A stretch of DNA of 48,913 nucleotides from an uncultured bacterium (GCA_903823865.1 CAIJUJ010000029.1:1-48913); one strand, 5' to 3'; positions 8,022 to 36,855 are shown, numbered from the stretch's first letter. A program made the numbers and translations. Notes: generated from the letters alone by a model not told the origin.

Positions 8022-8062
<41 letters not shown>

Positions 8063-9608: not shown

Positions 9609-9645
<37 letters not shown>

Positions 9646-10239
9646 ATCTCTAACAATATTTAGCCTTACCGGTTAGTTCCGGCAGATTCCCTCAAGCTTT
9701 TCGTGTCCTGAGGTACTCAAGAATAATAACGGAAAAGATATTTTATTTTCACTTACGGGACTATTACCCACTAGGGTTCTGCTTCCCAGCAGATTCTGTT
9801 AACAAAATATTTTGTAACTTTTCTCATTTATAAATAAATGACGTCACCATCTTACTACACCGATCATAAACTTTATGTACAAAAATTTTATACACAAAGT
9901 TTATGATCGGTTTGGGCTACTTCCTTTTCGCTCGCCGCTACTAGGGAAATGTTGTTACTTACGTAACATTGTTTTCTGTTCCTCCAGGTACTGAAATGTT
10001 TTACTTCCCTGGGTGTGCATCTTACATCAAGTGCAAGATAACCAACAAAGTTGGTTGAGTTTCCTCATTCGGAAATCTCCGGATCAAAGGTTGCTAAGCA
10101 CCTCCCCGAAGCTTATCGCAGCTTTACTACGTCCTTCATCGCTTATTAGAGTCAAGGCATCCACCATGCGCCCTTAAATTTCCCATTAGGAAATTTAAAA
10201 ACCACAATCTTTAATTAGTTTACATCGTAAACTAATAAA

Positions 10240-18709: not shown

Positions 18710-18741
18710 ATACTATATACTGAATACTTATACTATATACT
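18710..18741 (-). repeat. AGTATnn heptad array (5 units) after the rplF stop
   Basis: ATACT at 18710, 18717, 18724, 18730 and 18737. Confidence 0.8.
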
Positions 18742-18743
18742 TT

Positions 18744-19277
18744 TTATGCCGTTTTCTTTCCTTCTTTTCTTCTGATGACTTCGCCTTCAAATCTGATTCC
18801 CTTTCCTTTATATGGTTCTGGTTTCTTTATTGCTTTCAAACTTGAAGCAAAACTTGTAACCAATTCTTTATCAATACCATTTATTACAATAATTCCTTTG
18901 TCTGAAGTTATTTTTAGATTTTTTGGAATTGAAACTTTTACTGGATGAGAAAATCCTACCTTGAAAACAATTTCTGCTGGTGTGATATCTGCTTTAAAAC
19001 CAATTCCTTCAACGACAAGCCTGTTTGAGTATCCTTTATTTACTCCTTCCACCATATTTGTAATATGAGAAGAATAAGTACCCCAAAGTGCTTTGTTTTC
19101 CAAAGTATCTTTTACTGGTTTTAATTCAACTTTATTTCCAACAACTTGGATTGTAATGTTTTTCTTGAAAGCTCGTGAAAGTTCTCCTAGCGGACCTTTT
19201 ACAGTAACAACATCACCGTTCACGACAACTGTGGTTTTTGCTGGTATTTCTATTCCTTTTTTACCTAATCTTGACAT
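18744..19277 (-). CDS. rplF: 50S ribosomal protein L6
   Basis: MSRLGKK, VKGPLGEL and PEPYKGKGI. Confidence 0.95.
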   Translation of the reverse strand: MSRLGKKGIEIPAKTTVVVNGDVVTVKGPLGELSRAFKKNITIQVVGNKVELKPVKDTLENKALWGTYSSHITNMVEGVNKGYSNRLVVEGIGFKADITPAEIVFKVGFSHPVKVSIPKNLKITSDKGIIVINGIDKELVTSFASSLKAIKKPEPYKGKGIRFEGEVIRRKEGKKTA

Positions 19278-19295
19278 TGTATTTTATAAAAATAT

Positions 19296-19685
19296 TTACC
19301 AAATTTTGAACAATACTTCCCCACCAACTTTTTGTTTAACAGCTTCTCTGTTTGAAAGAATACCTGCTGGTGTTGAAAAAATTGTTGTACCAAATCCGTA
19401 TTTAAAAGGTTTTATATCTCCTGATTTTTGATAGATTCTTCTTGAAGGTTTTGAAACTCTTTGTACTCCTGATATTTTTGGAGTTTTGTCTGATTTATAA
19501 TTTAAAACAACATCAAGCATTCTGCCTGTGCTATTTATTGAAAATGATTTTACATAACCAGCCCTTGTTAGCGCATCTGCAATTGCAACTTTATTTTTTG
19601 AAGTATAAACAGAAATAGATTCCTTGCCAGCAAGGTTTGCATTCTTAATTCTTATTATAAAGTCTCCGATAATATCTGTTACCAT
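19296..19685 (-). CDS. rpsH: 30S ribosomal protein S8
   Basis: [23 protein letters not shown] and [15 protein letters not shown]. Confidence 0.95.
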
Positions 19686-19864
19686 GATGATTTTTTTACA
19701 CCGGGAATTTTTCCCTGATTAGCAAACTCTCTAAAGCAAATTCTGCATAGATCAAACTCTCTCATGTAGCCGTGTTTTCTTCCACAACGGAAACATCTTC
19801 GCACTACTCTTGATGCGAATTTTACTGGTTTTTTTGATCTAGCTATAACTGATTTTTTAGCCAT
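19679..19864 (-). CDS. rpsN: 30S ribosomal protein S14 (Zn-binding type, 61 aa)
   Basis: MAKKS start at 19864 (the track start at 19897 lies in the promoter region); [15 protein letters not shown]. Confidence 0.93.
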
Positions 19865-19872
19865 AATTAAAT

Positions 19873-20080
19873 AAAAGCTTGAAAAAGCTTGTCGCAATAT
19901 ACTAGCAAGAACCTAGAGGAAAGTCAATGAAATGACGAGTCTTATTCAGATAAGACGACTATATTTCATTGACCCCGTCACTATTTCAGCAAAATCATAA
20001 TAATTACTAAAATTGGCGATAGAAAACTTGTACTAAATTAATAAAAAAATTAACTGATAAAAATAGTGTTGGGGGTCAAC
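19873..20080 (-). repeat. Structured promoter cassette, copy 1 (includes rpsN promoter TTGACT-17-TAGTAT at 19899-19927)
   Basis: Homologous to 24003-24215 with identical blocks of 11, 19 and 12 bp. Confidence 0.75.
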
Positions 20081-20102
20081 AAAAAAACCGCTATTATGCG
20101 GT
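20081..20102 (-). terminator. Intrinsic terminator after rplE
   Basis: Minus strand ACCGC-ATAATA-GCGGT followed by a T-tract. Confidence 0.6.
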
Positions 20103-20672
20103 CTTTTTTCTTTTGCTCTTAATTCTTTTAGCATCCTCTCCTTTTTTGAATGGAAAGCCTAAATATTCTAGGAAAGCTTTTGCTGTAACTTTATCTTTTT
20201 GATTTGTAACGATTGTGATTGATAGTCCAAAAACATCTTTCAATTCTTCGTTTGATGCTTCTGGAAAAACTGAATTTTCTTTCATTCCGATTGTGAAATT
20301 ACCCATATTGTCTATTGCGTGTGCAGAAAGTCCTCTAAAATCTTTTGTTCGTGGCAATGCAACATAAACAAGCTTGTCTAGAAAATCAAACATTCTGTGT
20401 CCTCTTAAAGTAACTTGATATCCGACCGGATCTCCTTCTCTTACTTTGAAAGTAGCAACTGATTTCTTTGCGACTTTAAGCATAACTTTTTGTCCAGAAA
20501 TTTTTGTAAGTCTGTCTTCAACAACTTTGTTTTTGTTTTTATCTTTGAATGAACCGGTGCCAGAACTCAAAACAACCTTCACAATTTTTGGTGTTTGCAT
20601 TTTGTTCTTTAAACCCAAAGTTCCCTTTAAGGATTCAAATGCTTTATTCTGTTTTTCTTTTAATGACATCAT
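20094..20672 (-). CDS. rplE: 50S ribosomal protein L5
   Basis: PKIVKVVL, ISGQK, FKVREG, ALPRTKDFRGL and DNMGNFTIG. Confidence 0.95.
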   Translation of the reverse strand: MMSLKEKQNKAFESLKGTLGLKNKMQTPKIVKVVLSSGTGSFKDKNKNKVVEDRLTKISGQKVMLKVAKKSVATFKVREGDPVGYQVTLRGHRMFDFLDKLVYVALPRTKDFRGLSAHAIDNMGNFTIGMKENSVFPEASNEELKDVFGLSITIVTNQKDKVTAKAFLEYLGFPFKKGEDAKRIKSKRKKTA

Positions 20673-20688
20673 GATGTTTAATTTTTTA

Positions 20689-20720
20689 ATACTGTATACT
20701 AAATACTTATACTATATACT
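20689..20720 (-). repeat. AGTATnn heptad array (5 units) after the rplX stop
   Basis: ATACT at 20689, 20696, 20703, 20709 and 20716; same 7,7,6,7 spacing as 18710-18741. Confidence 0.8.
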
Positions 20721-20724
20721 GATT

Positions 20725-21024
20725 CTATATTTCTTTTCCTGTCTGTTTTGATATTCTGACAAATTTACCACCAATAAGTTTTTTCCCAACTCTTGCTCTC
20801 TTGCCTGCTTCATTTACCATAACGTTTGAAGCGTTGATAGGCATTGTTTTGTTTATTATCTGACCTTTTGAATCAGACTTTTTTGCTTTTTGGTGTTTCT
20901 TGCTGATATTTACACCCTCAACAACAACTTTGTTTAATTTTGGGAAAGCAGCAATAACCTTTCCGACTTTACCCTTGTCTTTTCCTGCAATTACTATTAT
21001 GCTGTCTCCTTTTTTAATTTTCAT
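20725..21024 (-). CDS. rplX: 50S ribosomal protein L24
   Basis: KKGDSIIVIAGKDKGK (KOW), VVEGVN and PINASNV. Confidence 0.95.
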   Translation of the reverse strand: MKIKKGDSIIVIAGKDKGKVGKVIAAFPKLNKVVVEGVNISKKHQKAKKSDSKGQIINKTMPINASNVMVNEAGKRARVGKKLIGGKFVRISKQTGKEI

Positions 21025-21042
21025 TATAATTTTATTACTTAA

Positions 21043-21414
21043 TTAAACAATTTCTGGTGCAAGTGATGCAATCTTTTTAAAACCCAATTCTGCAAGCTCT
21101 CTTGGAATAGGACCAAATACTCTACCTGCTATTGGATCTTTTTTACCCTTTTCAATAATAACAACTGCATTTTCATCAAATCTTATATACGAACCATCTG
21201 CTCTTCTGAAAGGCTGTCTTTGTCTGACAATAACTCCATAAAGAATATCCTTTTTCTTAGCCATTTTTCTTGGTTCTGCTTTTTGTACTGAAAGGACAAC
21301 TACCTCGCCGATTTTTGCCCATCTCTTTTTTGAACTTCCAAGAATCTTAAAAACTCTGCCTATTTTGGCACCTGAGTTATCTGTTATTTTTATAATTGAT
21401 CTTGGTTGTATCAT
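21043..21414 (-). CDS. rplN: 50S ribosomal protein L14
   Basis: DNSGAK, IRFDENAVV and RVFGPIPREL. Confidence 0.95.
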   Translation of the reverse strand: MIQPRSIIKITDNSGAKIGRVFKILGSSKKRWAKIGEVVVLSVQKAEPRKMAKKKDILYGVIVRQRQPFRRADGSYIRFDENAVVIIEKGKKDPIAGRVFGPIPRELAELGFKKIASLAPEIV

Positions 21415-21441
21415 TTTGGTATGTTAATTAAATACTAATCT

Positions 21442-21693
21442 TTATTTTAAAACTTTAAAATTCTTATTCTTTGAAATTGGTTTTGTTTCTATTATTTCTA
21501 TAATTTCTCCTTCTTTACAAGTATTCCCTGCATCGTGAGCCATTATTTTATTTTGTTTCTTTATATATTTTCCATATTTTGGATGTTTCTTAAAAGAATC
21601 GATAGAAATAACTACAGTGTCTTTCATTTTTGTAGAAACGACTACACCTTTTAATATTTTTCCATTATTCTTTTGTACTGTTGTTTTTTCCAT
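21442..21693 (-). CDS. rpsQ: 30S ribosomal protein S17
   Basis: GVVVSTKMKDTVV, HPKYGKY and ETKPISK. Confidence 0.95.
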   Translation of the reverse strand: MEKTTVQKNNGKILKGVVVSTKMKDTVVISIDSFKKHPKYGKYIKKQNKIMAHDAGNTCKEGEIIEIIETKPISKNKNFKVLK

Positions 21694-21710
21694 TTTATAT
21701 TAGTTTAAAA

Positions 21711-21911
21711 TTATGCTTTCTTTTCTTTTTTTGATTCGTTTAAAATTGTAAGTATTTGTGCAATCTCTTTTTTCAAATTTCTTCCAGCTTTAACATTTTT
21801 TGTTTTGCTTCCTGAAGTGCCGAATCTAAAATTGCTCAAAGCTACTGCTTTTTCCCCAAGCTCTTTATCTAGTTCACCTTCTGTTTTTTTTCTTAAATCT
21901 TTTATATTCAT
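21711..21911 (-). CDS. rpmC: 50S ribosomal protein L29
   Basis: LSNFRF, LKKEIAQILT; position between rplP and rpsQ. Confidence 0.9.
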   Translation of the reverse strand: MNIKDLRKKTEGELDKELGEKAVALSNFRFGTSGSKTKNVKAGRNLKKEIAQILTILNESKKEKKA

Positions 21912-21921
21912 TGTATTAAAA

Positions 21922-22338
21922 TTATCTTGCTAGAAATTTTGTATCTACTGGAAGTTTTGTCCCACCTTTTCTTAGCATTTCTTTTGCAGAAATTGCATCA
22001 ACTCCATCAACTTCAAAAAGGACTCTTCCTGGCTTGACGATAGCAACATATCCTTGCAATTCTCCTTTACCCTTTCCCATTTTAACTTCGGCTGGCTTTT
22101 GTGTATATGGATGATCTGGGAAAATTCTTACCCAAATCTTTCCGCTCTTGCTCATTGTGTGTGCAATTGCTTTTCTTGCTGCTTCTATTTGTTGTGATTT
22201 TATTCTACCTGCTGAAGTGGCTTTCAAACCAAAAGAACCGAAAGAAACTTTAGTTCCTCTAGTTTCAACACCAACTTTTTCAGAGTTTTCTCTGAATGTA
22301 TGTGCTTTTCTAAATTTTACTTTTTTTGGCATCAACAT
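21922..22338 (-). CDS. rplP: 50S ribosomal protein L16
   Basis: MLMPKKVKFRK, QIEAARK, WVRIFPD and KMGKGKG. Confidence 0.95.
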   Translation of the reverse strand: MLMPKKVKFRKAHTFRENSEKVGVETRGTKVSFGSFGLKATSAGRIKSQQIEAARKAIAHTMSKSGKIWVRIFPDHPYTQKPAEVKMGKGKGELQGYVAIVKPGRVLFEVDGVDAISAKEMLRKGGTKLPVDTKFLAR

Positions 22339-22349
22339 GACTTTTAAAA

Positions 22350-23039
22350 TTATTTATTTTTTGTATCAGCGGCTTGTCCACTTTTCTTTGCAAAAATATC
22401 TCCTTTGTATATCCAAACCTTAATTCCCAAATCACCGTATGTCATGTGGGCTTTTTCTTGTGCGTAGTCAATATCTGCTCTCAAAGTTTGAAGTGGAATT
22501 CTTCCTCTTTTCAATTCTTCTGCTCTTGCGATTTCGGCACCGCCAAGTCTTCCTCCACAATAAATTCTGATACCTTTTACATCTCTATTTGCCATAACTT
22601 TTTCAACAGTTTGTTTCATAACTCTTCTGAAAGGCAATCTTTTTTCTAGTCCTTCAGCAATCATTTGTGCGACTATTGCAGAATTTGATTCTGGTGATTT
22701 TATTTCTTCTACATCAAGTTTAAAATCTGCTGGAATAGTAAGTTTGTGTCGTGAAGCAAATTTCATTATATCTTTTCGAAGTTTGACTGAGCCTTCCCCG
22801 CTTCTGCCGATAACAACACCCGGTCTTGATGTTTTTAATATCAATCTAAATGTTTTGTCATTTCTTTCCATTTCAATAGCACCAATATATTGGCCTCTCA
22901 TTTTCTTTTCTAAATATTCTCTTAGCATCATGTCTGCTCTTAGAAAATCTTTATATTTTTGGCCAGTTGAAAACCATCGAGATTTCCAATCGCGGATTAT
23001 GCCTAATCTATGTGAATATGGGTGAACTGAATGTGACAT
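22350..23039 (-). CDS. rpsC: 30S ribosomal protein S3
   Basis: VHPYSHRLG, SRPGVVIGRSG, GRLGGAEIAR and PLQTLRADIDY. Confidence 0.96.
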   Translation of the reverse strand: MSHSVHPYSHRLGIIRDWKSRWFSTGQKYKDFLRADMMLREYLEKKMRGQYIGAIEMERNDKTFRLILKTSRPGVVIGRSGEGSVKLRKDIMKFASRHKLTIPADFKLDVEEIKSPESNSAIVAQMIAEGLEKRLPFRRVMKQTVEKVMANRDVKGIRIYCGGRLGGAEIARAEELKRGRIPLQTLRADIDYAQEKAHMTYGDLGIKVWIYKGDIFAKKSGQAADTKNK

Positions 23040-23040
23040 A

Positions 23041-23517
23041 TTATTTATTTGGTTCTGACTTAACTTTTTCTGCTTTTTTTGCCTTTGGTTTTACTTCAAC
23101 TTTTTTTTCTGTTGTTTCAGCTTTTACTACTGGCTTTGCTATAGTTTTCAACTTTGAAAGTTTAGACTTTTTTGCTGGCATATTATCTATTGTATCTAAT
23201 TGTACAAAAACATGGCTTGTTCTTTTGTTGATTGGATAAGCCATTCCTCTTGATCTTGGCATTCTTCTTTTTAGAACTACGCCTGCATCTACTCTAAATT
23301 CTTTTACATAAAGCTGATCGGATGAAATATTATAATTGTGAGATGCATTTGCTACTGCTGAGTCTATCAAGTCTAAAAGTGGCTTTGCCGCTCTCTTTAC
23401 CAAAAAAGTTAGAGAATTTTTTGCTTCTTCTACTTTTTTTCCTTTCACTAGATTGGCAACTAATCTTACCTTTCTTGGTGACTGTCTATAATCATTTAAA
23501 TTTGCTGTAATCATCAT
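23041..23517 (-). CDS. rplV: 50S ribosomal protein L22 (Lys-rich C-terminal extension)
   Basis: RQSPRKVRLVANLVKGK, SAVANA, PRSRG and KRTSH. Confidence 0.95.
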   Translation of the reverse strand: MMITANLNDYRQSPRKVRLVANLVKGKKVEEAKNSLTFLVKRAAKPLLDLIDSAVANASHNYNISSDQLYVKEFRVDAGVVLKRRMPRSRGMAYPINKRTSHVFVQLDTIDNMPAKKSKLSKLKTIAKPVVKAETTEKKVEVKPKAKKAEKVKSEPNK

Positions 23518-23523
23518 TGGTTA

Positions 23524-23865
23524 TTATTTTTTAGCTTCTGTTGATGCTTTAGCTGCTTTTGATGCTGAAATTTCTGATTCCTTTGCTGCGATATCAATAT
23601 CTTTCTGCATTTTACCTCCGTGTTTAGTAAACTTTCTTGTTGGAGAAAATTCGCCAAGTCTGTGTCCAACCATATCTTCTGTTACCAAAACATCTATGTG
23701 TTGTTTGCCATTGTGAACACCAAAAACAAAGCCAACCATTTCTGGAGAAATCTGACTTCTTCTTGACCATGTTTTTATTGAACCTGTTTCTACGGGTTTT
23801 TTACCTTCTATTTTTTTTAGAAGATTTTCATCAACATATGGTCCTTTCTTTAGTGATCGTGACAT
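23524..23865 (-). CDS. rpsS: 30S ribosomal protein S19
   Basis: [23 protein letters not shown] and [13 protein letters not shown]. Confidence 0.96.
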
Positions 23866-24002
23866 CCCAGTTATAAATTTTATTGCTACTAATCTTTAAG
23901 TTTACTATCTTTTTTTGTTTTAAATTTTAACGCTTTTTTTACTATTCACTTCATCTCGTTATTTATAACGGGACAGGTAAAATATTTGCGTAAAATAAAA
24001 CA

Positions 24003-24215
24003 AGAAGCTCCTAAGAGCTCGAGTAAACATATTAGCAAAATCCAAAGAAATGTCAAGAAAATAAAGAGCCCTGTGACAAAACAGGGCGACTATATTTTCT
24101 TGACCCCGTCACTATTTCCACTAAATCAAAACAATCATTAAAATTGGCGAAAAAACATGTTATTTAATAATAATCAATAAAATCAAATAATAAAAATGGT
24201 GTTGGTGGGTCAACA
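24003..24215 (-). repeat. Structured promoter cassette, copy 2 (includes rpsS promoter TTGACA-16-TAATAT at 24029-24056)
   Basis: Homologous to 19873-20080. Confidence 0.75.
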
Positions 24216-24259
24216 GCTAAAACGGTGTATTTGAGCCATACTTTTTAAAATGAGATAAA

Positions 24260-24400
24260 TTACCTTTCAACATTAATACCAGCAGTATTATTTGTACTTT
24301 CTTTTGATTCAAAATAACCGGTAACTCCCATGATCAGAAAGCTGATACCAACAATGACAGCAAAGGTAATTAAAAATTTGAAAAATGTTGAATTAAACAT
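24260..24400 (-). CDS. Small single-TM protein (46 aa; not in the ORF track)
   Basis: Hand translation MFNSTFFKFLITFAVIVGISFLIMGVTGYFESKESTNNTAGINVER*; TGC-TATAAT 7 nt upstream of the ATG. Confidence 0.6.
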   Translation of the reverse strand: MFNSTFFKFLITFAVIVGISFLIMGVTGYFESKESTNNTAGINVER

Positions 24401-24430
24401 ACCTATTATTATAGCACCCGTCTTGGCACA

Positions 24431-25939
24431 TTAAAAATTATAAAATATATGTGCAAAAGCCTTCATCCCATTTATGGGAATATCTATTAGTTTTGTCCAG
24501 AAACTTTTTGTGGATGAAGAAGTTACTGCTTCAGCAACTGTAGCTGTTTCTTGGAGATTGTCGTTTGTGGATAAGTTTTTTGTGTCATTAGTTATTGTGG
24601 TAGTTTTTTGTGGTGTTTGAGATACTGCAATCTGTTTTTTATATTGTTCAGCCAATACTTCCGCTTCAGCAACAGAAATGCTTGGGCTGTCCGATAATGT
24701 TTCGGCCTGTGTGGTTGTTGCAACACTCGATAAAACTGAATTTTCTTGTTCTCTACTTGAAAGATTAAAATACGCCACTTCCCTACCAGATGGATTTGCT
24801 AAAGCGACTCTTTCGGTTGATGAGCTAATATTTAAATCGTCTTTAGATAAAATAATTTTATTATTCGCACTTATTATTGTATCTTTTGGAAAAATAAAAT
24901 CTTTTTCGATACCGCGAATTTTCCAACCACCAATATTAATTTCTGTTTTACCATTATTTTTTATTTCAATATCTCCGCCTAAAATTTGTACTATCGATAT
25001 TTCTGGATTAATTACTTTTACTATAGTTCTAGACACTGAACTTTCTTCTCCGCAAGTGCCATTTAACACAACCTGATATTCACCGGCGTACTTATATGTA
25101 TGTGTGATATTTTTTCCACCTACTTCAAAACCATCTCCAAATGACCAGCTAAAATTTGGTGTGCATTGATTTGTACTAGGTACAGAATATTTTGCATCAA
25201 ATTCTAAAGGAGAGCCAACTAGAGCCATTCTTTCTCTACCAGCGGACATTTGAAAAATTGTTTTTTCTGTATAATTGCTTAGATCTTCTATACCCGAATG
25301 CGCGGAAACGTAAACAGTTCTTGTAACAATTTTTGTTGTTTGAGTATTGGTGCTTGTTGATATCGTACTTGAAGATGTATTATTTTGATTATTTGTATTA
25401 TCTGTTGATGTTGATATTTGTTCTTCTATAAAACCAATGGTTGCAGCAGCAGTTTCCCAAATACCACCAATTTTTTGCAAAGAATTTCCATCTCCCGATG
25501 CACCCATAGAGGAATCATAAGACATCGAATCAATTATTACATTTTTGTCATCCTTAATAGCCACGGTTCCGGAAGCGTTTGTTAGAGTAAAACTGCTATC
25601 GAATACTTTTCCATGATAATTCGGGAAATTGATTTTAAAATTAATAGGATTGTCTACCAAAACCACAGAATCTCCTTTACTTATAGTCGTTGAACCATCC
25701 AAATCTTTAATCAAATGATTGCTATCGTTAATGGTCAATTTAATTTTGGAAATATCTATATCTGATTCATTATCATTTATGATTTTGACCCATTCCTTAT
25801 CAGTGTCAGTGCCTTTGGCATCATACATAACTTCAACAATAGATATTTTAGCAAAAACTTTTTTAACAAAAATAAAATTAGTAATAAAAATTAATAATAT
25901 ACAAAATAAAAAGAACAAATATTGTTTGTTTTTTAGCAT
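24431..25939 (-). CDS. Secreted lamin-tail-domain + PKD-domain surface protein
   Basis: ISIVEVMYD..D.EWV (LTD-like), WSFGDG..ITHTYKYAGEY (PKD) and a second EIKNNG..INIGGW LTD-like segment. Start moved to MLKNK at 25939 because the track start overlaps a terminator and a DnaA box. Confidence 0.75.
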   Translation of the reverse strand: MLKNKQYLFFLFCILLIFITNFIFVKKVFAKISIVEVMYDAKGTDTDKEWVKIINDNESDIDISKIKLTINDSNHLIKDLDGSTTISKGDSVVLVDNPINFKINFPNYHGKVFDSSFTLTNASGTVAIKDDKNVIIDSMSYDSSMGASGDGNSLQKIGGIWETAAATIGFIEEQISTSTDNTNNQNNTSSSTISTSTNTQTTKIVTRTVYVSAHSGIEDLSNYTEKTIFQMSAGRERMALVGSPLEFDAKYSVPSTNQCTPNFSWSFGDGFEVGGKNITHTYKYAGEYQVVLNGTCGEESSVSRTIVKVINPEISIVQILGGDIEIKNNGKTEINIGGWKIRGIEKDFIFPKDTIISANNKIILSKDDLNISSSTERVALANPSGREVAYFNLSSREQENSVLSSVATTTQAETLSDSPSISVAEAEVLAEQYKKQIAVSQTPQKTTTITNDTKNLSTNDNLQETATVAEAVTSSSTKSFWTKLIDIPINGMKAFAHIFYNF

Positions 25940-25986
25940 AATTACAAAATATTTTATCATCCCAAAAAGTTCTCTCCTAATTTTTC

Positions 25987-25995
25987 TGTGGATAA
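25987..25995 (-). promoter_or_regulatory. Perfect DnaA box (TTATCCACA)
   Basis: CTGTGGATAACT, identical to 30512-30523. Confidence 0.6.
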
Positions 25996-26049
25996 CTTTC
26001 ATCCCCGAGGTGGAGCCTCGGGGATTTTTTTTTGATTTTATTGCAAACA

Positions 26050-26075
26050 AAAAACCGCCTTTCGGCGGTTTTTTG
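26050..26075 (-). terminator. Intrinsic terminator of the large surface protein gene
   Basis: AAAAAACCGCC-TTTC-GGCGGTTTTTT. Confidence 0.85.
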
Positions 26076-26121
26076 TAACCTATTCTTCTACGACGAATCT
26101 CGTAGATAGAATCACAAGTGG

Positions 26122-29100: not shown

Positions 29101-29886
29101 ATTTACTGTCTGGCCTGCTGCTGCTGTAAGAAGAATGTCTGACTTAACAGCGACTGTGACTGAAGAACCTGCTGGGATTGTAAACAATCCTTGTCCAGCA
29201 TTAAATGTTATTTTTCCTGCTGAAACTGTTGCTGAATCTGTCAATCTAACAGCACCTTGGAACAAATAAACATTTGAAAGTGATGTATCTGCTGATACTC
29301 CACCTCTTTGTAATGTTATATTTGTAACGACTGCTGGAACTGCTGATGTGTTTTGGAATGTATATTCCGCAAGATCAGCTGCTGCTTGACCTGCGATGAT
29401 AGCACCTGATACAGGTGAACTTGCAGCCAATGATACTGCAACACTTGAACCTGTTGGGACAACTGTTGTACCTTGTGAAACTGTAGTTCCTGCTGAAGCA
29501 TTTACTACTCCTCTTGTTTTAGCACCAAAGTATCCTGCTGCTGGTGTTATTCCTTTTGACAACTGGAATTGTATCAAAGCTGCTTTTGTAAGCGCTCCGA
29601 AATATCCTGTTGCTGGAGAAATTCCTAGCAAGTTTTGTAATGCTGTAACATCAGCACCTCTTGATCCGACTGTTAAGTCTTTAGCAAAAGTATATCCTGA
29701 TGAAACTGTTACGACTGATGCTGGAGCTATTGAAGCTGTAAGTGATGCGGCTTGTGAAGCATTGATAATCCCTGCGCTCAAAAGCATAGAGATATCACTT
29801 GCTGTCAAAGCTGATGCAACGTTAGCACCCGCCAATGAAAGTACCAATGCGACTGACGCAAAGATACCAATTAATTTTTTACTCAT
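26122..29886 (-). CDS. Large secreted S-layer-like protein with an N-terminal peptidoglycan-binding domain
   Basis: Signal peptide; FAKDLTVGSRGADVTALQ..TGYFGALTKAALIQFQ (PG-binding-1-like); Thr/Ser/Ala/Val/Gly-rich beta repeats. Confidence 0.8.
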   Translation of the reverse strand: MSKKLIGIFASVALVLSLAGANVASALTASDISMLLSAGIINASQAASLTASIAPASVVTVSSGYTFAKDLTVGSRGADVTALQNLLGISPATGYFGALTKAALIQFQLSKGITPAAGYFGAKTRGVVNASAGTTVSQGTTVVPTGSSVAVSLAASSPVSGAIIAGQAAADLAEYTFQNTSAVPAVVTNITLQRGGVSADTSLSNVYLFQGAVRLTDSATVSAGKITFNAGQGLFTIPAGSSVTVAVKSDILLTAAAGQTVNVSLLGVTLGSTSQVVSAVYPVSGAVMTVASAGDISPLSLANLAVSPTVQAGTLSQTIWSATLSGITRYVWLKSLAVKVIGSIPSNSLQNLNLYISGVQAAKASGIDANGMITFDLTAMPYKIDSSRTLEIRADIVNGSSRSFSLSLQNAADISVIDSNYNVGIAASGLPITTVNISVTVGNVSISQDSNLSSGNIVYGSTNVPLAQYTLKAYGEDEKISYLNISANQKLSNVALYANGIAISSSQNVLPTASTLFSLGSSLVISANQTVTLTVKGDLKDSIGSSTPVASQVIVTLGGYANNTQGSYSSQMCTFPGTGGTIQGCPTVVSTIAGPTMTIVGGGLTVATNASFNNSSVTANSTGVKIGSFNLSSNSSEPVRITTLVLGIASSSTLPLSGLSNLKISDANTSVNPQSSNNFGVNFTIPANGTHVVDVFADIGAVASVANSDTAQTLVSATTTAGSAGAKASGTVTISNQLTVGQIASTTINGVLVSYTAGGIVSSTTAAANLAALINASQSLVAASSVQGVITLTANTAGTVGNLITTTAGGTNTTAAQTVLAGGVDTASQVSTLTPGNLEVGDTLTAVIGATTVNYQVASVATTTEMTAFAAAINAAASATVTATSDATKVTLTAVAKVVGTPVVTASATNGTHSSTNRIITSLAVTATGVNSNIDASQVTPIYGQVLTVGNGSLSTSGLASGVTPTSAQLVIGGSTSANSVIGTYTFTSTIGTSVITDLGFMASSTNLNAITSISVGGVTVPVSAGATTTISGLNIQIPVSNVGTNIPVSVAYNTVGVTAGGITSAVPVQLVLTSVKYQAGNNTTTFYPNKSTLAMSPVAAYPLVSLISASRTGLTKSTSLKLADISITVVGKTVEMSKIGFTILQGKTATTTGAALVLKDSSNTVVATSSVMTATGIGSVVFVPNYNLAPGTYSYSLYGSVDSVTVGVATDALTTQLDAPTTLGWYDVEGNSGQLDASLIPSYSTSNQNYLSN

Positions 29887-30473
29887 ATCTAATTTGTAAT
29901 TTTTAAATTAAAAGAAAAAACTTTCCCTAACATTAACTAATAAAAAACTAATAACGTTGGAAAGAATTATCTTTATTTTCTCACCAGTAAACTTTTTGAT
30001 AAACAAAATTTTATTTTATTTATCTCGAGCAAAATAAAGTGTTTCGACTAAAAACAATTTTATTTAAATCTGATGAACGTCTATTCTCTCATTGAAATTT
30101 TTAAAATGACCTTCTAAAAATTTCGAGATAACACGTGGCCGACACATTGCACACGCGACTTTCTTTCTACTATTCCTAATTATTTATATTCTCATACACA
30201 CGATCACCTTGAGCAGATGAAAGTTTTTTAGTGTTTGAGTTCGACACAAACAAAAAGGATTAGCTGACGTAAACGAAAACTGAACTTTCTGTGATTTTCC
30301 GAGTATTCAATTGTCAAAGTTCTCGACCACTGACAAATGGGTTTGAGCAAACCCGAATCAGTATTTCTGTATTGGTTTAACCTTTTAAAGTTAAACCGAT
30401 TAGACCGCCTTTAAGCCGTCTAAATCTTGAGAAATATAAAGCGCTTTTAGGCACTTAATAAATCTCAATCTAT

Positions 30474-30521
30474 ATTATATATCTTGTTAGAATATCTAGC
30501 AAAATATATAACTGTGGATAA
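30474..30521 (-). promoter_or_regulatory. Candidate promoter (TTGCTA-17-TATAAT) with an adjacent perfect DnaA box
   Basis: -10 at 30474-30479, -35 at 30497-30502, TTATCCACA at 30513-30521. Confidence 0.6.
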
Positions 30522-30744
30522 CTAAAAAAAGCTTCTACTTATCGCACTTAACTCTTAAAAAATTAAAGGCTTTAAATAAAAACTGCAACTAATTACGACC
30601 ACAACTATATTCTTACATATTATAAGCAAAAAGGCAATTATAAATTTGGTCTATTTTACACATGTATTTAATAATAATTAAGATGAAATTCTAAAAGTTT
30701 TAACATAATGGTGGTGAGCAGAAAGAGAAGCAAATAAAGGACAG

Positions 30745-30786
30745 AAAAATAGCCCTGTTTCCTGACTAGGAAACAGGGCTATTTTT
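30745..30786. terminator. 19-bp perfect hairpin, terminator-like
   Basis: AAAAATAGCCCTGTTTCCT-GACT-AGGAAACAGGGCTATTTTT. Confidence 0.8.
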
Positions 30787-30792
30787 GTCTTA

Positions 30793-31617
30793 TTATTTGA
30801 TAATAAAATATTTTGACCATCTTCTCTCGCCTTCTTTCTTTAGGACACCTTTTGAAACAAGTGATAGGAGTTCTCTTTGGATTGTTTTTTCGCTACAACC
30901 CTTAATATTCTTAGCAAAATCTTTGATTGTTAGCTTCACACCACTTTTTAACATTGATAGTATTATTTCTTGCCTACTATTTTTGTCCTTTACAGTTTTT
31001 CGTGAGACATCATTATTTGTTAAAGACACGTTTCCATCTATCACTGCTTTGTCCGATTGGCTTTGTCCTTTATTGTTGTCCTTTAGAAAATCATTCTTAG
31101 TAATGTCCAGACCCTGATGGTAATTTGGAAAGACCTGGTCTTGCACAAAATTATAATCTCCATCAAAAAGATTTGGTTCAAAAGCAATCTTTGCTGAAGA
31201 ATAATTTGATGCTGAAGTAATCAAAAAATTAGCTAGTTTTGTTAGTTCTGAAGTGATTATATAATGATTGTTTTTTGATATCATTTTTGTGTGCTCTGCA
31301 ATATCAAAAAGGGTTGATATTTCAGTAATAGCTGACAGTAAATTTTTATGATATGTTTCTTCCCCCCAAATTCTATCGGACATTTCCAAAACGTTACCAA
31401 GCATCTTGTGTGAGATATGTCTCGCTCTTTCTTTCATTGGCTCTTTATCAGACATGTGACTAGTAAGTAGGTATATACCTTTGACGAGCTTTTCTGTCTT
31501 TTGAAATATAAAAAGTCCGTATGAGTCACCATCAAACAATATTCCGATATCGGCTTTAACAATAGGGTTATTTTGACCTTGAGGATTAACTAAATTATTT
31601 TGATTCTTGTTTTCCAT
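30793..31617 (-). CDS. Helical N-terminal domain + C-terminal DeoR-like winged HTH protein
   Basis: RQEIILSML...LTIKDFAKNIKGCSEKTIQREL..LV..GVLKKEGERRW. Start at MENK (31617) preferred over the track start. Confidence 0.7.
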   Translation of the reverse strand: MENKNQNNLVNPQGQNNPIVKADIGILFDGDSYGLFIFQKTEKLVKGIYLLTSHMSDKEPMKERARHISHKMLGNVLEMSDRIWGEETYHKNLLSAITEISTLFDIAEHTKMISKNNHYIITSELTKLANFLITSASNYSSAKIAFEPNLFDGDYNFVQDQVFPNYHQGLDITKNDFLKDNNKGQSQSDKAVIDGNVSLTNNDVSRKTVKDKNSRQEIILSMLKSGVKLTIKDFAKNIKGCSEKTIQRELLSLVSKGVLKKEGERRWSKYFIIK

Positions 31618-32011
31618 AATTAAGTTGATTATTGTCTTTAATAAAACGTCCTTTATTTTATTACTGTCTTTTAAATTTTGTCTTTTAAGATTTATTGGAC
31701 AAATAGTTAAGTTAGATAATGATATTATGTCCATTAGGAAATGTAAAGAGCAAATACACCATTGCAAAACATATTCTATTGCTGTAGCAATAGGTATTGA
31801 AATATACATAAGTATTACTAATTTCTTGCGCGCGTGGCGAAGCAACCTAAGTTTTTATTGAATTTATTTGTGAACTATTTCACTACACCGACAACGGGGC
31901 TATATGATTTATTATTACAAAAAAAATCACAAGAAATAATATTGAAAATTTGATATAATTATCAGAAGTTTTTATGTTGTAAATTAAAAGTTTGAACTAA
32001 ATAAATATTAA

Positions 32012-34288
32012 ATGGCTAAAAAAAATAAAGATAAAAAAATAAACCAGAAGTCATCAAAAGAAAATATTTTAAGTGGAATTAAACATCAGACTAGACAAGG
32101 TATTTTTGCGGTAGTTTTTATTGTGCTCGCAATTATTTTTGTCCTTGCATCTATTAGTAATTCTAACGGTGGAAGTTTTGCTGGACCAGTAGGCCAAGAA
32201 CTTTATAAAATACTTTCGTTGCTTCTTGGCATTGGATATTTTCTTTTGCCTGTATTTTTTCTCATGCTCAGTATTTCATTTTTTAAAGCAGAAGAAAGAA
32301 GTTTAAACAAATTAAAAATTTTTGGTGGCCTATTCTTTTTTATTTCAGGACTTGGACTTATAAATTTAATTTCGACACAATATTGGACTGCGCAAGGCGG
32401 ATATGTAGGATGGGTTATCTCCACTCCCCTTTTGAAAATGTTTGGCTTTTACGCAAGCACAATAATTTTGCTAGCTCTATTGATTATTTCTTTCCTAATT
32501 TTATTTGAAACAAAACTTACAATTGATTCGCTCATGTTTTGGAAAAAGAAAGAAAAAGAAGTTGAAGAAAACGATGATGATATCCAAATGATTGCTGACA
32601 AGGCCGAGGAAGATGAAGAAAAAGCAGACGAGGTTGAAAAAGAAAAAGAGGACAAAAAAGAGAAAAAACAATCAAAAGGTTTCTTTGTAAAAAATGGTGA
32701 TGAAGAAGATTCCGGAATTAAATACAATCCTCGAGCTCTCGGTAGCACAAAATATGTTCCTCCCCCACTATCATTGCTTGAAGACGACAAGGGGAGAGTT
32801 GTTTCTGGTGACATAAAAGCAAATGCAAATATTATAAAAAGAACTTTGCAAAACTTTGGTATCGATGTAGAAATGGATGAAGTTTCAATCGGTCCATCTG
32901 TTACAAGATATGCTTTAAAGCCTGCTGAGGGTGTAAAAATTTCAAGAATTTTAGGTTTACAAAATGACCTATCGCTTGCTCTCGCCGCACACCCACTTAG
33001 AATTGAAGCTCCTATCCCAGGCAAATCTCTTGTAGGAATTGAAATACCAAACTCAATAAAATCCACCGTTGGTCTTTCAATGCTTATTGGTTCTGAAGAA
33101 TTTCAAAAATCTGATAAACCATTACTTGTAACTCTTGGAAAAGGTATTTCTGGAAAATCACACTTCGTAAACGTAGCAAAAATGCCCCATGTTCTTGTAG
33201 CTGGTGCTACTGGCTCTGGTAAATCTGTCACGATACACGCAATGATTACGTCGTTACTTTACAGAAATTCTCCTGAAATAATGAGATTTATAATGATCGA
33301 CCCCAAAAGAGTTGAGCTTACTTTGTATAACAAAATTCCCCACCTTCTTACACCTGTTATTACTGATGCAAAGAAAACTATTCTTGCTTTGAAATGGGCA
33401 ACAAAAGAAATGGACCGCAGATATGATATTTTAGAAGCTATGGCAGTAAAAGATATAGATTCTTATCATAAAAATATTTTTAATCCTGAAATTCAAAGAA
33501 TAAATGAACTGAAGAAAAAAGGTACTTATAATCCTGACAAACATATTGCACCTGAGCCTATGCCATTCATTATTATTGTTATAGATGAGCTTGCAGATAT
33601 TATGATGGCTTATCCACGCGAGCTTGAAGCTGGAATTGTCCGTTTGGCACAAATGAGCCGAGCTGTTGGTATTCACCTTATCATTTCCACACAAAGACCA
33701 TCCGTTAATGTTATCACCGGTATAATCAAGGCAAACATTCCTTCAAGAATTGCGCTGCAGGTTGTTTCTCAAATAGATTCAAGAACGATTTTAGATACAC
33801 CAGGAGCTGAAAAACTTCTCGGGGCTGGAGATATGCTTTATATGGGCGGAGAAATGTCAAAGCCAATTAGAATCCAGTCTGCTTTTGTTTCAGAAAAAGA
33901 AGTTAAAGATGTTGTTAAATTTTTGGTTGATGAATATAAAAATGAACTTATTGGTGGAGAAATTGACCTCGCTGAAGTCGCAAAGAGTGGAGAAAGTGAT
34001 GGTGTTGGAGTATTTAATAGTCTAGAAGATGATGGTAGCGATGAGCTTTACGAACAAGCTAAGGAAGAAGTTTTGAGAGCGGGTAAGGCATCTACTTCAT
34101 ACATACAAAGAAAATTACGTGTTGGATATTCTCGTGCGGCGAGACTCGTTGATTTACTTGAAAAAAATGGAGTTATTGGACCAGGCGATGGCGCAAAGGC
34201 AAGAGAAGTTATTGGAGCAAATAAAATTGAAAATGTAGAAGAAAAACCACTTGAAGGAGTTGAACATAATGACGGAGATTACTTATAA
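32012..34288 (+). CDS. ftsK: DNA translocase FtsK/SpoIIIE
   Basis: N-terminal TMs, GPSVTRY, RIEAPIPGK, HVLVAGATGSGKS, IDELAD, TQRPS and a gamma domain (QRKLRVGYSRAARL). Confidence 0.95.
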   Translation: MAKKNKDKKINQKSSKENILSGIKHQTRQGIFAVVFIVLAIIFVLASISNSNGGSFAGPVGQELYKILSLLLGIGYFLLPVFFLMLSISFFKAEERSLNKLKIFGGLFFFISGLGLINLISTQYWTAQGGYVGWVISTPLLKMFGFYASTIILLALLIISFLILFETKLTIDSLMFWKKKEKEVEENDDDIQMIADKAEEDEEKADEVEKEKEDKKEKKQSKGFFVKNGDEEDSGIKYNPRALGSTKYVPPPLSLLEDDKGRVVSGDIKANANIIKRTLQNFGIDVEMDEVSIGPSVTRYALKPAEGVKISRILGLQNDLSLALAAHPLRIEAPIPGKSLVGIEIPNSIKSTVGLSMLIGSEEFQKSDKPLLVTLGKGISGKSHFVNVAKMPHVLVAGATGSGKSVTIHAMITSLLYRNSPEIMRFIMIDPKRVELTLYNKIPHLLTPVITDAKKTILALKWATKEMDRRYDILEAMAVKDIDSYHKNIFNPEIQRINELKKKGTYNPDKHIAPEPMPFIIIVIDELADIMMAYPRELEAGIVRLAQMSRAVGIHLIISTQRPSVNVITGIIKANIPSRIALQVVSQIDSRTILDTPGAEKLLGAGDMLYMGGEMSKPIRIQSAFVSEKEVKDVVKFLVDEYKNELIGGEIDLAEVAKSGESDGVGVFNSLEDDGSDELYEQAKEEVLRAGKASTSYIQRKLRVGYSRAARLVDLLEKNGVIGPGDGAKAREVIGANKIENVEEKPLEGVEHNDGDYL

Positions 34289-34315
34289 ACCCGTTAAAGT
34301 TTTTACTAACGCATT

Positions 34316-34585
34316 ATGCAATACATATATGTTATACAAAGTGCAAAAGATGGTCAATTGTATACAGGTTGCACCAAAAACATTAAGGAGAGACTAAAAT
34401 TGCATAATGCCAAAAAAATTACATCAACAAAAAAACATGCGCCATATGTACTTATTTATTACGAGGGGTATATTAATAGCAAAGATGCATTTAATAGAGA
34501 AAAATATATGAAAACACAATATGGTAGAAATTATATAAAAAAGGTCCTAAATAATTTTTTTATTAGTAAAAATTTTCTCGGGTAA
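34316..34585 (+). CDS. Stand-alone GIY-YIG nuclease family protein
   Basis: YIYVIQS..YTGCT..RL..HN..T..LIYYE..A..RE..MK. Confidence 0.85.
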   Translation: MQYIYVIQSAKDGQLYTGCTKNIKERLKLHNAKKITSTKKHAPYVLIYYEGYINSKDAFNREKYMKTQYGRNYIKKVLNNFFISKNFLG

Positions 34586-34939
34586 ATGACTGACAGACAT
34601 TCAACAAGAAAATTACTTAAAATAATCATCATTTCAGTAATTGCTTTATTTGTTGTAATTTACACTGGATTTGAAATACAGAGAGTATTGTTTGGGCCAA
34701 GAATTACTGTTCTCTCCCCCAAAAATGGGGTTCTAGTATCGGATTCCTTAACAGAGGTCGTGGGTATCGCAAAAAATATTAAAGAGATAAGTTTAGATGA
34801 CAGAAAAATATTTATTGACGAGCAGGGCAATTTTAAAGAGCAAGTTTTGTTATCATATGGATATAATGCAATAGATATAAAAGCGACAGATAAATTTGGC
34901 AGAAATACAGAAAAAATAATTGAGGTTATTTATAAATAA
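34586..34939 (+). CDS. Small membrane-anchored Ig-like protein
   Basis: N-terminal TM; GPRITVLSP..G..IDEQGNF..LSYGYN.IDIKATDKFGR. Confidence 0.7.
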   Translation: MTDRHSTRKLLKIIIISVIALFVVIYTGFEIQRVLFGPRITVLSPKNGVLVSDSLTEVVGIAKNIKEISLDDRKIFIDEQGNFKEQVLLSYGYNAIDIKATDKFGRNTEKIIEVIYK

Positions 34940-34959
34940 AATACAGAAAAGTGTATTCT

Positions 34960-35030
34960 GTCATTCCCGCGAAGGCGGAAATCCAGAATTAATTCAAGAC
35001 AACCTAGATTCCCGCCTTCGCGTGAATGAC
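34960..35030. repeat. Inverted REP doublet (GTC-tagged, dRS3-like ATTCCC-N8-GGGAAT)
   Basis: GTCATTCCCGCGAAGGCGGAAATCCAG ... CTAGATTCCCGCCTTCGCGTGAATGAC. Confidence 0.85.
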
Positions 35031-35089
35031 AACGCAAAAAATATGATATAATTATTTAGAAATAATTTATAAATTTTAATAAGATAATT

Positions 35090-36142
35090 ATGGTAAAGAA
35101 AACAAAAGAAAAAAAACAAGGGTCTGATGAATTGGTTGAAACACCAACAGAAAAAAAGGAAACGAATTCGCACAAAATAGAAGATGCAATTGATGCTATA
35201 AAAACCAAATTTGGTGATGATTCTATTATGATGCTTGGGGATAAACCAAGATTAAACATTAATGTTATTCCTACAGGTTCTATTGGTCTTGACGCGGCGC
35301 TTGGAGTTGGTGGACTTCCTCGCGGAAGAATAATTGAAATTTTTGGTCCTGAATCTTCTGGTAAAACAACACTCGCCCTTCATGCTGTTGCTGAAGCACA
35401 AAAAATGGATGGTGTTTGTGCCTATATAGACGCAGAACATGCAATGGATCCTGAATATGCAAAAAAACTTGGTGTAAAAATTGACCAGCTTTTAATTTCT
35501 CAACCAGACAATGGTGAGCAAGCTCTTGATATTGTTGATAGTTTAGTTCGTTCTGGAAAGATAGATATCATTGTTATTGACTCAGTGGCTGCCCTTACCC
35601 CAAAAGATGAGATTGAGGGAGATATGGGTGCATATCATGTCGGTAAACAAGCGAGATTGATGTCACAGGCGCTACGAAAACTCACTGCTATTGTTGCAAA
35701 ATCAAAAACAATTGTAATATTTATAAATCAAATTAGAATGCAAATCGGTGTGATGTTCGGCAATCCAGAAACAACCCCAGGAGGAAAAGCTTTAAAGTTT
35801 TATACATCGGTCAGACTTGATATAAGAAGAATTGCTCAAATAAAAAAAGGTGATGAAATTATGGGAGGAAGAGTCCGCGTAAAAGTTGTAAAAAATAAAG
35901 TCGCTGCTCCTTTCAAACAAACAGAATTTGACCTTATGTATAACGAAGGTATTTCAAAAGAAGGTGAAATACTTGCCTTGGGAGAAAAAATGTTGATTAT
36001 CAAAAAATCTGGTTCATCTTACGAATACAATGGAGAAAAAATTGGCCGAGGATATGATTCGGCGAGAACATTTTTGAAAGAAAATCCAAAAGTAGCGGGA
36101 ACCATATTAAAAGAAATCAGAGCTAAGCTAAAAGAAATATAA
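35090..36142 (+). CDS. recA: Recombinase RecA
   Basis: [34 protein letters not shown] and GGKALKFY. Confidence 0.98.
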
Positions 36143-36147
36143 AAATC

Positions 36148-36179
36148 AGTATAAGTATCTAGTATTCAATATATAGTAT
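36148..36179 (+). repeat. AGTATnn heptad array after the recA stop
   Basis: AGTAT at 36148, 36154, 36161 and 36175; AATAT at 36168. Confidence 0.75.
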
Positions 36180-36190
36180 ATGCAAATAAC

Positions 36191-36228
36191 AAAAGACGAG
36201 TTTTCGCAAAGCGGAAACTCGTCTTTTT
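36191..36228. terminator. Bidirectional terminator between recA and efp
   Basis: AAAAGACGAGTTT..AAACTCGTCTTTT. Confidence 0.8.
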
Positions 36229-36251
36229 GTGTTTTAATTTTTGTATTTCTT

Positions 36252-36283
36252 ATATTACATACTCATACTGTATACTGCATACT
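36252..36283 (-). repeat. AGTATnn heptad array after the efp stop
   Basis: ATACT at 36259, 36265, 36272 and 36279; ATATT at 36252. Confidence 0.75.
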
Positions 36284-36855
36284 TATTTCCCCGCTCTTCC
36301 CACATAATCTCCCGTTTCAGTATTTACGGTAACAATCTCACCTTCAGTAATAAATAATGGTCCATTTATTATTGCGCCACTTTCAAGTGTAATTTGTTTT
36401 GTTCCACCACTTGATGTGTCTCCCCTCACAGCTCCCGGAGCGTCTGTAACTTTTAAATCAACTTTTGTTGGTAGCTGAACTCCAATAATTTTTTCATTAA
36501 AAATCATGGTTTCAACAAGAGAATTGGCTTTCATAAACTTTGCTGGACTTCCAATGATTTCTCCGTCTATTTCAAATCTTTTTGAAGGATCTTTTGGATC
36601 ACAAAACCAATATTTCCCTTTATTTTCATATAAAAATTTTGCGTCTTTGTATTCAATTTCAGCTTCTTCCACTCTTTCGGATTGGTGAAAAGATATTTCT
36701 GTAACCTTACCAGTGATAAGATTTTTCAACTTTGTTGCGTTAACGGGCTTTCTCATTTGTTTTCTGAATACATGAGAAGAAAGTACTTCAAAAGGTTGAC
36801 CCTCATGAATTATGATTTTTCTGACGACTATATCACTGTAATCTAGCATTGCCAT
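36283..36855 (-). CDS. efp: Elongation factor P
   Basis: KLKNLITG, PGAVRGDTSSGG, LESGAIINGPLFI.EGE..VNT.TG.Y. Confidence 0.9.
   Translation of the reverse strand: MAMLDYSDIVVRKIIIHEGQPFEVLSSHVFRKQMRKPVNATKLKNLITGKVTEISFHQSERVEEAEIEYKDAKFLYENKGKYWFCDPKDPSKRFEIDGEIIGSPAKFMKANSLVETMIFNEKIIGVQLPTKVDLKVTDAPGAVRGDTSSGGTKQITLESGAIINGPLFITEGEIVTVNTETGDYVGRAGK

Follow-up and report, generated by a model that had tools for sequence, protein, structure and literature searches.

Phased AGTATnn arrays behind stop codons are probably gene-less copies of a PF05635 cassette in an uncultured bacterium

The 48,913-nt stretch of DNA from an uncultured bacterium that was analyzed here (GCA_903823865.1 CAIJUJ010000029.1:1-48913, contig C29 of its assembly; "the window" below) carries four short arrays of the heptad AGTATnn, located at the stop codons of rplF, rplX, recA, and efp. 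These arrays are probably gene-less copies of one or both arms of an intervening-sequence (IVS)-type cassette whose gene belongs to Pfam family PF05635. We read them from sequence comparison as recent, lineage-specific insertions behind stop codons, in sense orientation, with a ring of the PF05635 protein as the putative reader of the heptads. Arrays and cassette arms form one repeat family, and the arrays are insertions relative to sister genomes. Constraint acts on the 5-nt word at a 7-nt phase and on a count of about five units, while the spacers are free.

The genome to which the window belongs comprises 677 kb in 35 contigs with ~33% G+C, and looks like that of a bacterium of the candidate phyla radiation (CPR). 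The whole genome was scanned for arrays, defined as at least four AGTAT units with at most one mismatch per unit, at least three of them exact, at a spacing of 6–8 nt; ten dinucleotide-preserving shuffles served as the control. Gene calls are from our own open reading frame (ORF) heuristic, and key genes near arrays were identified by Pfam. The assembly is a draft in which many arrays lie at contig ends, and array copy numbers are lower bounds; as many arrays are <200 nt from a contig end, the repeats probably break the assembly. Contigs, related genomes, and loci are designated below by C, G, and L numbers, respectively.

The Resident Cassette and the AGTAT Repeat Family

On contig C2, inverted AGTAT arrays at positions 8968–9000 (+) and 9463–9495 (−) bracket a 119-aa ORF (9008–9367) that matches PF05635 (23S_rRNA_IVP, S23p; E = 7.6e-38) and is the only PF05635 gene in the genome. 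The cassette is situated between smpB and the transfer-messenger RNA (tmRNA) gene, with its 3′ arm ending 6 nt ahead of the mature tmRNA 5′ end. Its 5′ arm reads AGAATAG AGTATAT AGTATGC AGTATTT AGTAT, and its 3′ arm is the reverse complement of AGTATAC TGTATTC AGTATTC CGTATAC AGTAT; the four arrays of the window have the same word and the same number of units as these arms. The same layout, again with AGTAT arms, is found in five related genomes (G021, G003, G053, G007, and G022). The 3′ side of the resident cassette (C2 9368–9501; L002 3369–3502) is 62 nt longer than in G007 and G022, the extra sequence containing further ATACT units and a small hairpin, cccaaatactatatattgatttggg.

The genome-wide motif scan, proposed in the first-pass annotation as a check on its description of the four arrays, returned 20 arrays, compared to 0 in each of the ten shuffles. 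Five units are present in 17 of the 20 arrays and six in the other three. Information content is 1.5–1.9 bits at unit positions 1–5 and 0.3–0.6 bits at the two spacer positions, the base preceding AG is mostly a pyrimidine, and the spacing between units is 7 nt in 71 of 83 steps. Thirteen arrays start between −25 and +11 of a sense-strand stop codon (15% expected from random intergenic placement); for 12 of them the preceding frame is at least 80 codons long and the start lies at −9 to +11. None of the 20 arrays in the genome is antisense to a stop. The polarity and post-stop placement claimed earlier for the window are thus features of the family (13 sense vs. 0 antisense), and neither random orientation nor a lack of enrichment after stops was seen.

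The genes ahead of arrays include smpB, infC, fusA, dnaN, rny, those for an FKBP isomerase and a Mur ligase, and the four in the window; contig C1 also has an arm pair 8 nt upstream of tRNA-Glu. Convergent neighbors are each followed by an array in the orientation of their own gene, so polarity tracks transcription rather than replication, and replication-strand bias is ruled out as its cause. Several arrays of the genome have in common a 6-nt step at unit 2, and a related genome (G014) contains at least four identical array copies, which together indicate that whole arrays are copied.

Other heptad families accompany the AGTAT arrays in this genome. A second family, AAGTTnn, has 14 arrays (e.g., C14 14711–14743, C21 2876–2908, C33 30304–30337, and C35 4431–4464), ten of them with five units and ten after a stop, with most placed directly behind sense stops. 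There are also three GAATTnn arrays, several TAGCTnn arrays (C10 near position 13, C21 19755/19793, and C18 2353), and one degenerate AGTAT array. The very start of contig C15 (13–130) is a perfect 118-nt palindrome made up of an AAGTT array, a terminator, and an inverted AAGTT array, and may be real or an assembly artifact.

The Four Arrays of the Window

All four arrays are located where the first-pass annotation had placed them, with AGTAT on the mRNA strand, and Pfam confirms the preceding genes as those for L6, L24, RecA, and EF-P, with the genes for L18 and L5 downstream of the two ribosomal-protein arrays. Each consists of five units and includes one 6-nt step, as had been described. 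The rplF array (18710–18741, −; mRNA-strand sequence AGTATATAGTATAAGTATTCAGTATATAGTAT) begins 2 nt past the stop of rplF (ribosomal protein L6; 18744–19277, −), and 32 nt separate its end from the start of rplR (L18). In the rplX array (20689–20726, −), the five-unit part (20689–20720; AGTATATAGTATAAGTATTTAGTATACAGTAT) is joined by a degenerate AGAATC unit that overlaps the TAG stop of rplX (ribosomal protein L24; 20725–21024, −); the distance from the array end to the start of rplE (L5) is 16 nt. Both of these arrays are solo, and their reported near-identity is borne out by a difference of 2 of 32 bases.

The recA array (36148–36179, +; AGTATAAGTATCTAGTATTCAATATATAGTAT) begins 5 nt past the stop of recA (35090–36142, +), upstream of a terminator shared with efp. 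The efp array (36252–36283, −; AGTATGCAGTATACAGTATGAGTATGTAATAT) overlaps the TAA stop of efp (elongation factor P; 36283–36855, −) and is convergent with the recA array. The terminator common to both genes, a bidirectional intrinsic hairpin at 36191–36227, is a host signal separate from the arrays. An A-rich tail behind the arrays, AAATACAAAA, was considered as part of the element and rejected, as AATACAAAA-GC hairpin-TTTTGTATT is an ordinary bidirectional terminator that occurs with or without arrays. Terminators throughout the genome share this palindromic frame, which is suited to both directions (e.g., C8 1879, C22 11560/11592, and C27 70400/70439, as well as the one at 36191–36227), and AATACAAA is ~3-fold enriched in intergenic DNA.

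None of the four arrays encloses an ORF, and we therefore class them as ORF-less derivatives rather than cassettes. Single arrays have no self-complementarity. Inverted, pairable arms are seen for the recA/efp pair and for a hairpin in a group I intron (see below), and the rplF and rplX arrays are single. The suggestion that the recA and efp arrays can pair around their shared terminator holds in silico (−43.9 kcal/mol, z = −8), although a transcript ending at this terminator would not include both arms. Spacers of opposite arms do not co-vary to pair, so simple stem formation is not the sole constraint. A processing signal, one of the functions raised in the first-pass annotation, could be envisaged only at sites whose two arms are able to pair, in analogy to IVS stems, which RNase III cuts. 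No Rfam family covers the arrays at the gathering threshold, and the window contains no tRNA genes.

Turnover at Array Sites

Conservation in relatives, another of the checks proposed earlier, is patchy: the four-unit AGTAT pattern is found in 12 of 61 related genomes, and its reversed control once. At the rplX-rplE spacer, most congeners have 4–20 nt and no array, and the AGTAT array is common only to the genome studied here and its closest relative, G003. Other occupants of the same spacer are TACGAA-type arrays (G010, G014, and G001), an ACTTnnn-type array (G039), and, in G024, a complete PF05635 cassette with AAAGT arms. The rplF-rplR spacer is 1–21 nt long and array-free in eight genomes (G005, G001, G019, G015, G023, G033, G011, and G051) and holds a TACGAA-type array in G012. 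Between recA and efp, G007 and G011 have only the terminator hairpin; arrays after recA are TAGGT-type in G005, G014, and G001 and TAGCT-type in G017. The efp array is absent from G003, G007, and G011, and the efp genes of G006, G012, G018, G004, and G024 have AAAGT or TAGCT arrays behind them.

Where arrays are present at the orthologous spacers compared, they are always in sense orientation and abut the stop. The same preferences are evident in G026 and G014: of their 23 arrays, 18 consist of five units and 16 lie behind a sense stop. Presence and absence vary from genome to genome at orthologous sites, as in selfish or horizontally moving DNA. Of the four options listed in the first-pass annotation (a binding site for a multimeric RNA-binding protein, an all-frame stop trap, a processing signal, and a tiny selfish repeat), the last is the best supported, since orthologous sites are empty or filled with other heptad words, with the addition that the arrays correspond to arms of PF05635 cassettes. 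Overall, the arrays show the behavior of selfish DNA with rapid turnover that takes up positions directly after stop codons. At the four sites in the window, they are passengers whose presence in DNA that is transcribed but not translated is most likely neutral, or nearly so.

Insertions of other kinds were also observed in this operon. The rplX-rplE spacers of L080 (G019), L086 (G012), and L094 (G009) contain a different inverted-repeat element of 130–180 nt, aacgagcaaagcgagtata ... tattcactctgttcatt, with a second hairpin enclosed. The rplE-rpsN spacer measures 196 nt in the window (19898–20093), with a hairpin and T-run directly after rplE and a promoter-like site, TTGACT-17-TAGTAT, ahead of the S14 gene; in relatives (L070–L076) it ranges from a few bases to >1.2 kb (G003), which makes it another insertion hot spot in the ribosomal-protein operon.

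PF05635 Loci in Relatives and Across Phyla

The association of PF05635 with phased heptads extends well beyond the resident cassette. Twenty-nine of the 61 related genomes contain PF05635, and inverted period-7 arms are found at ~22 of 26 oriented loci. The arm word varies by cassette, and includes AGTAT, TAGCT, GTAGTGR, TAGGT, AAAGT, CTGGA, GGTAT, and GAATATT; one relative has its cassette within the 16S rRNA gene (L061). An AGTAT-type cassette is also present in ~8 of the 12 genomes with AGTAT arrays. When 101 loci drawn from many phyla were compared, one or more arms scored well above shuffled sequence at 71 of them, and units per arm had a mode of five (43 arms) followed by four (30 arms), as given by an automatic counter that is approximate.

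A tree of PF05635 proteins clusters by heptad word, requiring 16 changes compared to a shuffled mean of 19.4, a value reached in 0 of 200 shuffles. The tree is incongruent with taxonomy, and organisms of different families are mixed in it. Grouping by word together with mixing of families is expected if gene and arms move together. Within the 101-locus sample, heptad similarity increases with protein identity (rho = 0.22, for pairs that are not independent).

Proposed Mechanism

The structural relatives of the resident protein, 2gsc (E = 2e-16) and 2rld, have five chains per PDB entry each, and the Xanthomonas S23p protein is a homopentameric toroid (PMC4990558). The first-pass annotation had proposed a binding site for a multimeric RNA-binding protein; a PF05635 homopentamer is a plausible candidate for five phased units. 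Such a ring would read the word at its 7-nt phase, with each subunit taking one unit of single-stranded RNA or DNA, and this recognition may underlie the copying or maintenance of arrays. Arrays would insert, or persist, in the stretch from a stop codon to whichever signal follows, a start codon or a terminator. A promoterless cassette would need read-through from a host gene, which would account both for sense orientation and for placement after expressed genes.

Several observations weigh against gene-less copies of a mobile cassette as a full account. No target-site duplication could be defined for the arrays. The genome has ~37 orphan arrays against a single cassette and contains no remnants of decayed PF05635 genes, so the arrays are not simply eroded cassettes and must be copied. 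The AAGTT, GAATT, and TAGCT families lack a cognate PF05635 gene, the sole such gene having AGTAT arms. Among relatives, G005, G011, and G036 have arrays and no PF05635, and the only PF05635 match in G026, the genome richest in AGTAT arrays, has different arms. With these exceptions and that of the AAGTT family, one cognate protein per word in every genome had to be rejected, and the association is partial. Among pairs of PF05635 proteins with 60–75% identity, only 20% have the same word. Lastly, strong purifying selection acts on the resident PF05635 gene over three species, with a ratio of nonsynonymous to synonymous divergence (dN/dS) of 0.07–0.10, which is no less compatible with a domesticated host function than with a purely selfish one.

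Alternative Explanations

The last point leads to what we regard as the strongest competing account, albeit an unlikely one: a domesticated post-transcriptional regulon, in which the pentamer encoded at the smpB-ssrA locus would bind AGUAU ×5 in 3′ untranslated regions and inter-cistronic spacers and, in the manner of TRAP, tune mRNA stability or translation of the next cistron. In addition to the low dN/dS, the cassette arms are nearly invariant in the same three species although dS is 0.34–0.6, the word is conserved while spacers are free, and AGTAT arrays follow smpB, infC, fusA, rplF, rplX, efp, recA, dnaN, and rny, with 7–32 nt between array end and next start codon in five cases. A regulon is harder to reconcile with most congeners having the same sites empty or occupied by other words, with arrays in genomes that have no PF05635, with AAGTT and TAGCT arrays that have no cognate protein in this genome, and with the many arrays just ahead of terminators, where no gene lies downstream.

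That arrays abut or overlap stops could instead mark them as end-of-gene signals for the translation or transcription machinery, either the all-frame stop trap suggested in the first-pass annotation, acting on read-through or frameshifted ribosomes, or a hairpin-free pause or termination signal. A 7-nt period carries any TAG or TAA through all three frames, and smpB and the Mur ligase gene (contig C23) use a stop inside their array. The three-frame stops attributed to the rplF array are only partly confirmed, however: the array proper has stops in two frames, and the third is supplied by its 3′ junction, AGTAT/AA. Stops in all three frames are found in only 4 of the 20 arrays and are thus no family property, and the conserved word is AGTAT rather than the stop-forming junction. 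Moreover, the rplF and rplX arrays lie within an operon that must be read through, no hairpin or T-run was found after either of them, and the same genes in sister species do without arrays; we consider end-of-gene signaling improbable. An identity as intrinsic terminators was rejected on the same absence of hairpin and T-run, and on the separateness of the recA/efp terminator.

In the ATACT orientation, the repeats yield TATACT hexamers resembling −10 elements, which might serve stable-RNA genes or antisense transcripts. The positions of arms 6 nt before the mature tmRNA and 8 nt before tRNA-Glu, the near-invariance of the tmRNA-side arm in three species, and weak 9/12 matches with TATACT inside the rplF and rplX arrays are all in keeping with promoter-like DNA. 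Matches are nonetheless no more frequent than in shuffled sequence (2 vs. 2.2, 2 vs. 3.6, and 10 vs. 8.3), there is no good −35 element, and such promoters would mostly point back into the upstream gene, so that we give this account slightly less credence still. Least credible is local, microsatellite-like expansion by replication slippage unrelated to cassettes. Tandem 7-nt units in an AT-rich, slippage-prone genome would invite it, but the spacers of neighboring units are not alike, the number of copies stays near five rather than ranging widely, loci far apart have an internal 6-nt step in common and almost the same sequence, and the same arrays bracket PF05635 genes.

Relation to Known Systems

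The closest known counterparts of the resident cassette are the ORF-bearing IVSs of rRNA genes (helix 45 in Coxiella burnetii, and those with S23p of the Leptospira, Brucella, and Xanthomonas type), in which a PF05635 gene likewise lies between terminal inverted repeats and which are regarded as selfish and horizontally spread, as proposed here for the arrays. In the Coxiella IVS, three to four GACAGAT heptamers directly precede the S23p start, and RNase III cuts at the first repeat (PMC4990558). Insertions in CPR rRNA genes have also been reported to carry 23S_rRNA_IVP ORFs (10.1101/2024.02.27.582315). The four arrays differ from rRNA IVSs in having no ORF and, except for the recA/efp pair, no partner arm, and in being located in mRNA 3′ regions and operon spacers rather than in 23S helices 25 or 45, the sites of classical IVSs, which RNase III excises from pre-rRNA. 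Only one copy in this genome lies within an rRNA gene, in the P8 loop of a group I intron at model positions ~2621–2626.

As tandem 7-nt intergenic units with gene-relative orientation, the arrays fall into the class of bacterial heptad repeats. Cyanobacterial STRR sequences are heptanucleotide repeats of this kind. Direct repeats of the heptamer TAACTGA have been described from intergenic regions of marine Beggiatoaceae, some Cyanobacteria, and Bacteroidetes (MacGregor 2015, PMC4679880). Like the arrays, TAACTGA repeats have a 7-nt period, intergenic positions, and a fixed gene orientation, some lie over stops, and they are suspected to be mobile. However, TAACTGA sets are mostly placed toward a downstream start and have identical units in numbers from two up, whereas the arrays have free spacers and five units, plus or minus one. 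As units are non-identical and their number is fixed near five, the likeness to TAACTGA and STRR repeats is one of class and not of sequence family. S23p, intervening sequences, and PF05635 have 0 mentions in PMC4679880.

REP/REPIN-RAYT systems resemble the arrangement found here in that many short, non-autonomous extragenic copies, located behind stops next to terminators and turning over rapidly between relatives, accompany one protein gene. REPs, in contrast, are hairpins moved by an HUH/Y1 enzyme, whereas heptad arrays are not palindromic on their own, and PF05635 differs from RAYT in being a four-helix bundle with no known catalytic activity. The arrays do not belong to this group, as the REPIN-like family and the Y1 transposase of the genome are not associated with them. 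That transposase, of IS200/IS605 type (PF01797, E = 6e-29; contig C33 31469–31831, −), is the only one of its kind in the genome and is flanked by unrelated G+C-rich hairpins, and the genome has no reverse transcriptase gene (PF00078); both enzymes were accordingly rejected as movers of the arrays. One REPIN-like element lies in the window just upstream of recA (34963–35027) and consists of two inverted copies of the hairpin GTCATTCCCGCGnAGGCGGGAATC ~25 nt apart. Hairpins of the GTCATTCCCGCGnAGGCGGGAATC type number 39 genome-wide (e.g., C23 1462–1527 and C33 24770–24834), with similar ones in G006 and G018.

Protein-binding repeats offer a parallel for the layout of the arrays. The 11-mer TRAP binds 11 G/UAG triplets, and the hexamer HutP binds UAG-N4 repeats. 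As in the arrays, short words stand at a fixed phase with free spacers, and the number of words equals that of ring subunits; unlike TRAP and HutP, PF05635 has an unrelated fold, the arrays are not confined to 5′ leaders, and binding to them is putative. The resident protein also has a weak match to PF22296 (bAvd-like; 34.9 bits, cut-off 40). bAvd is a pentameric four-helix-bundle protein that binds nucleic acid and is an accessory to diversity-generating retroelements. As distinct from bAvd systems, the genome has neither a reverse transcriptase gene nor template and variable repeats.

Already published, then, are ORF-bearing rRNA IVSs, the Coxiella heptamers, and unexplained intergenic heptamer repeats (PMC4679880). 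Our literature search found no description of ~37 dispersed orphan arrays per genome, or of a link between PF05635 and such repeats.

A Two-Armed Element in a Group I Intron

Within the window, the 23S rRNA gene (6710–10190, −) is interrupted by a group I intron of 365 nt that has no ORF (6999–7363, −) and replaces 4 nt. In the GAACGUC/GACAGUUC hairpin, at Rfam model positions ~2621–2626, the intron takes the place of the loop; it matches RF00028 with 33.3 bits (E = 6e-7), below the gathering score of 50. Its insertion site is one that we take to be that of organellar I-CreI-type introns. The P8 hairpin of the intron is a two-armed, gene-less AGTAT/ATACT element (7053–7102, −; −22.2 kcal/mol, z = −4.2). 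The gene as a whole is 3481 nt long, compared to 2925 model positions, with other insertions near model positions 268–312 and a longer one after 583.

Implications

For annotation, arrays of this type matter because they overlap or supply stop codons, break assemblies, and can pass for promoters, for terminators, or for sites that regulate ribosomal-protein operons. The genome also offers a small and clean setting, with one PF05635 gene, ~20 cognate five-unit arrays, and sister genomes in which sites are empty, filled, or cassette-bearing. Both heptanucleotide spacer repeats and S23p/IVS proteins have been in the literature for decades with no function assigned to them, and they are linked in this genome.

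More speculatively, PF05635 homopentamers as a whole may be sequence-specific heptad readers, with five specific and two free bases per subunit, and would then constitute an undescribed, self-propagating protein-repeat system whose resident member has also been recruited to the ~20 AGUAU ×5 sites behind translation and repair genes. We put this forward tentatively, as a possibility suggested by the match between five phased units and five subunits. If true, such a reader system would jointly explain an orphan four-helix-bundle family, rRNA intervening sequences, and bacterial heptamer repeats.

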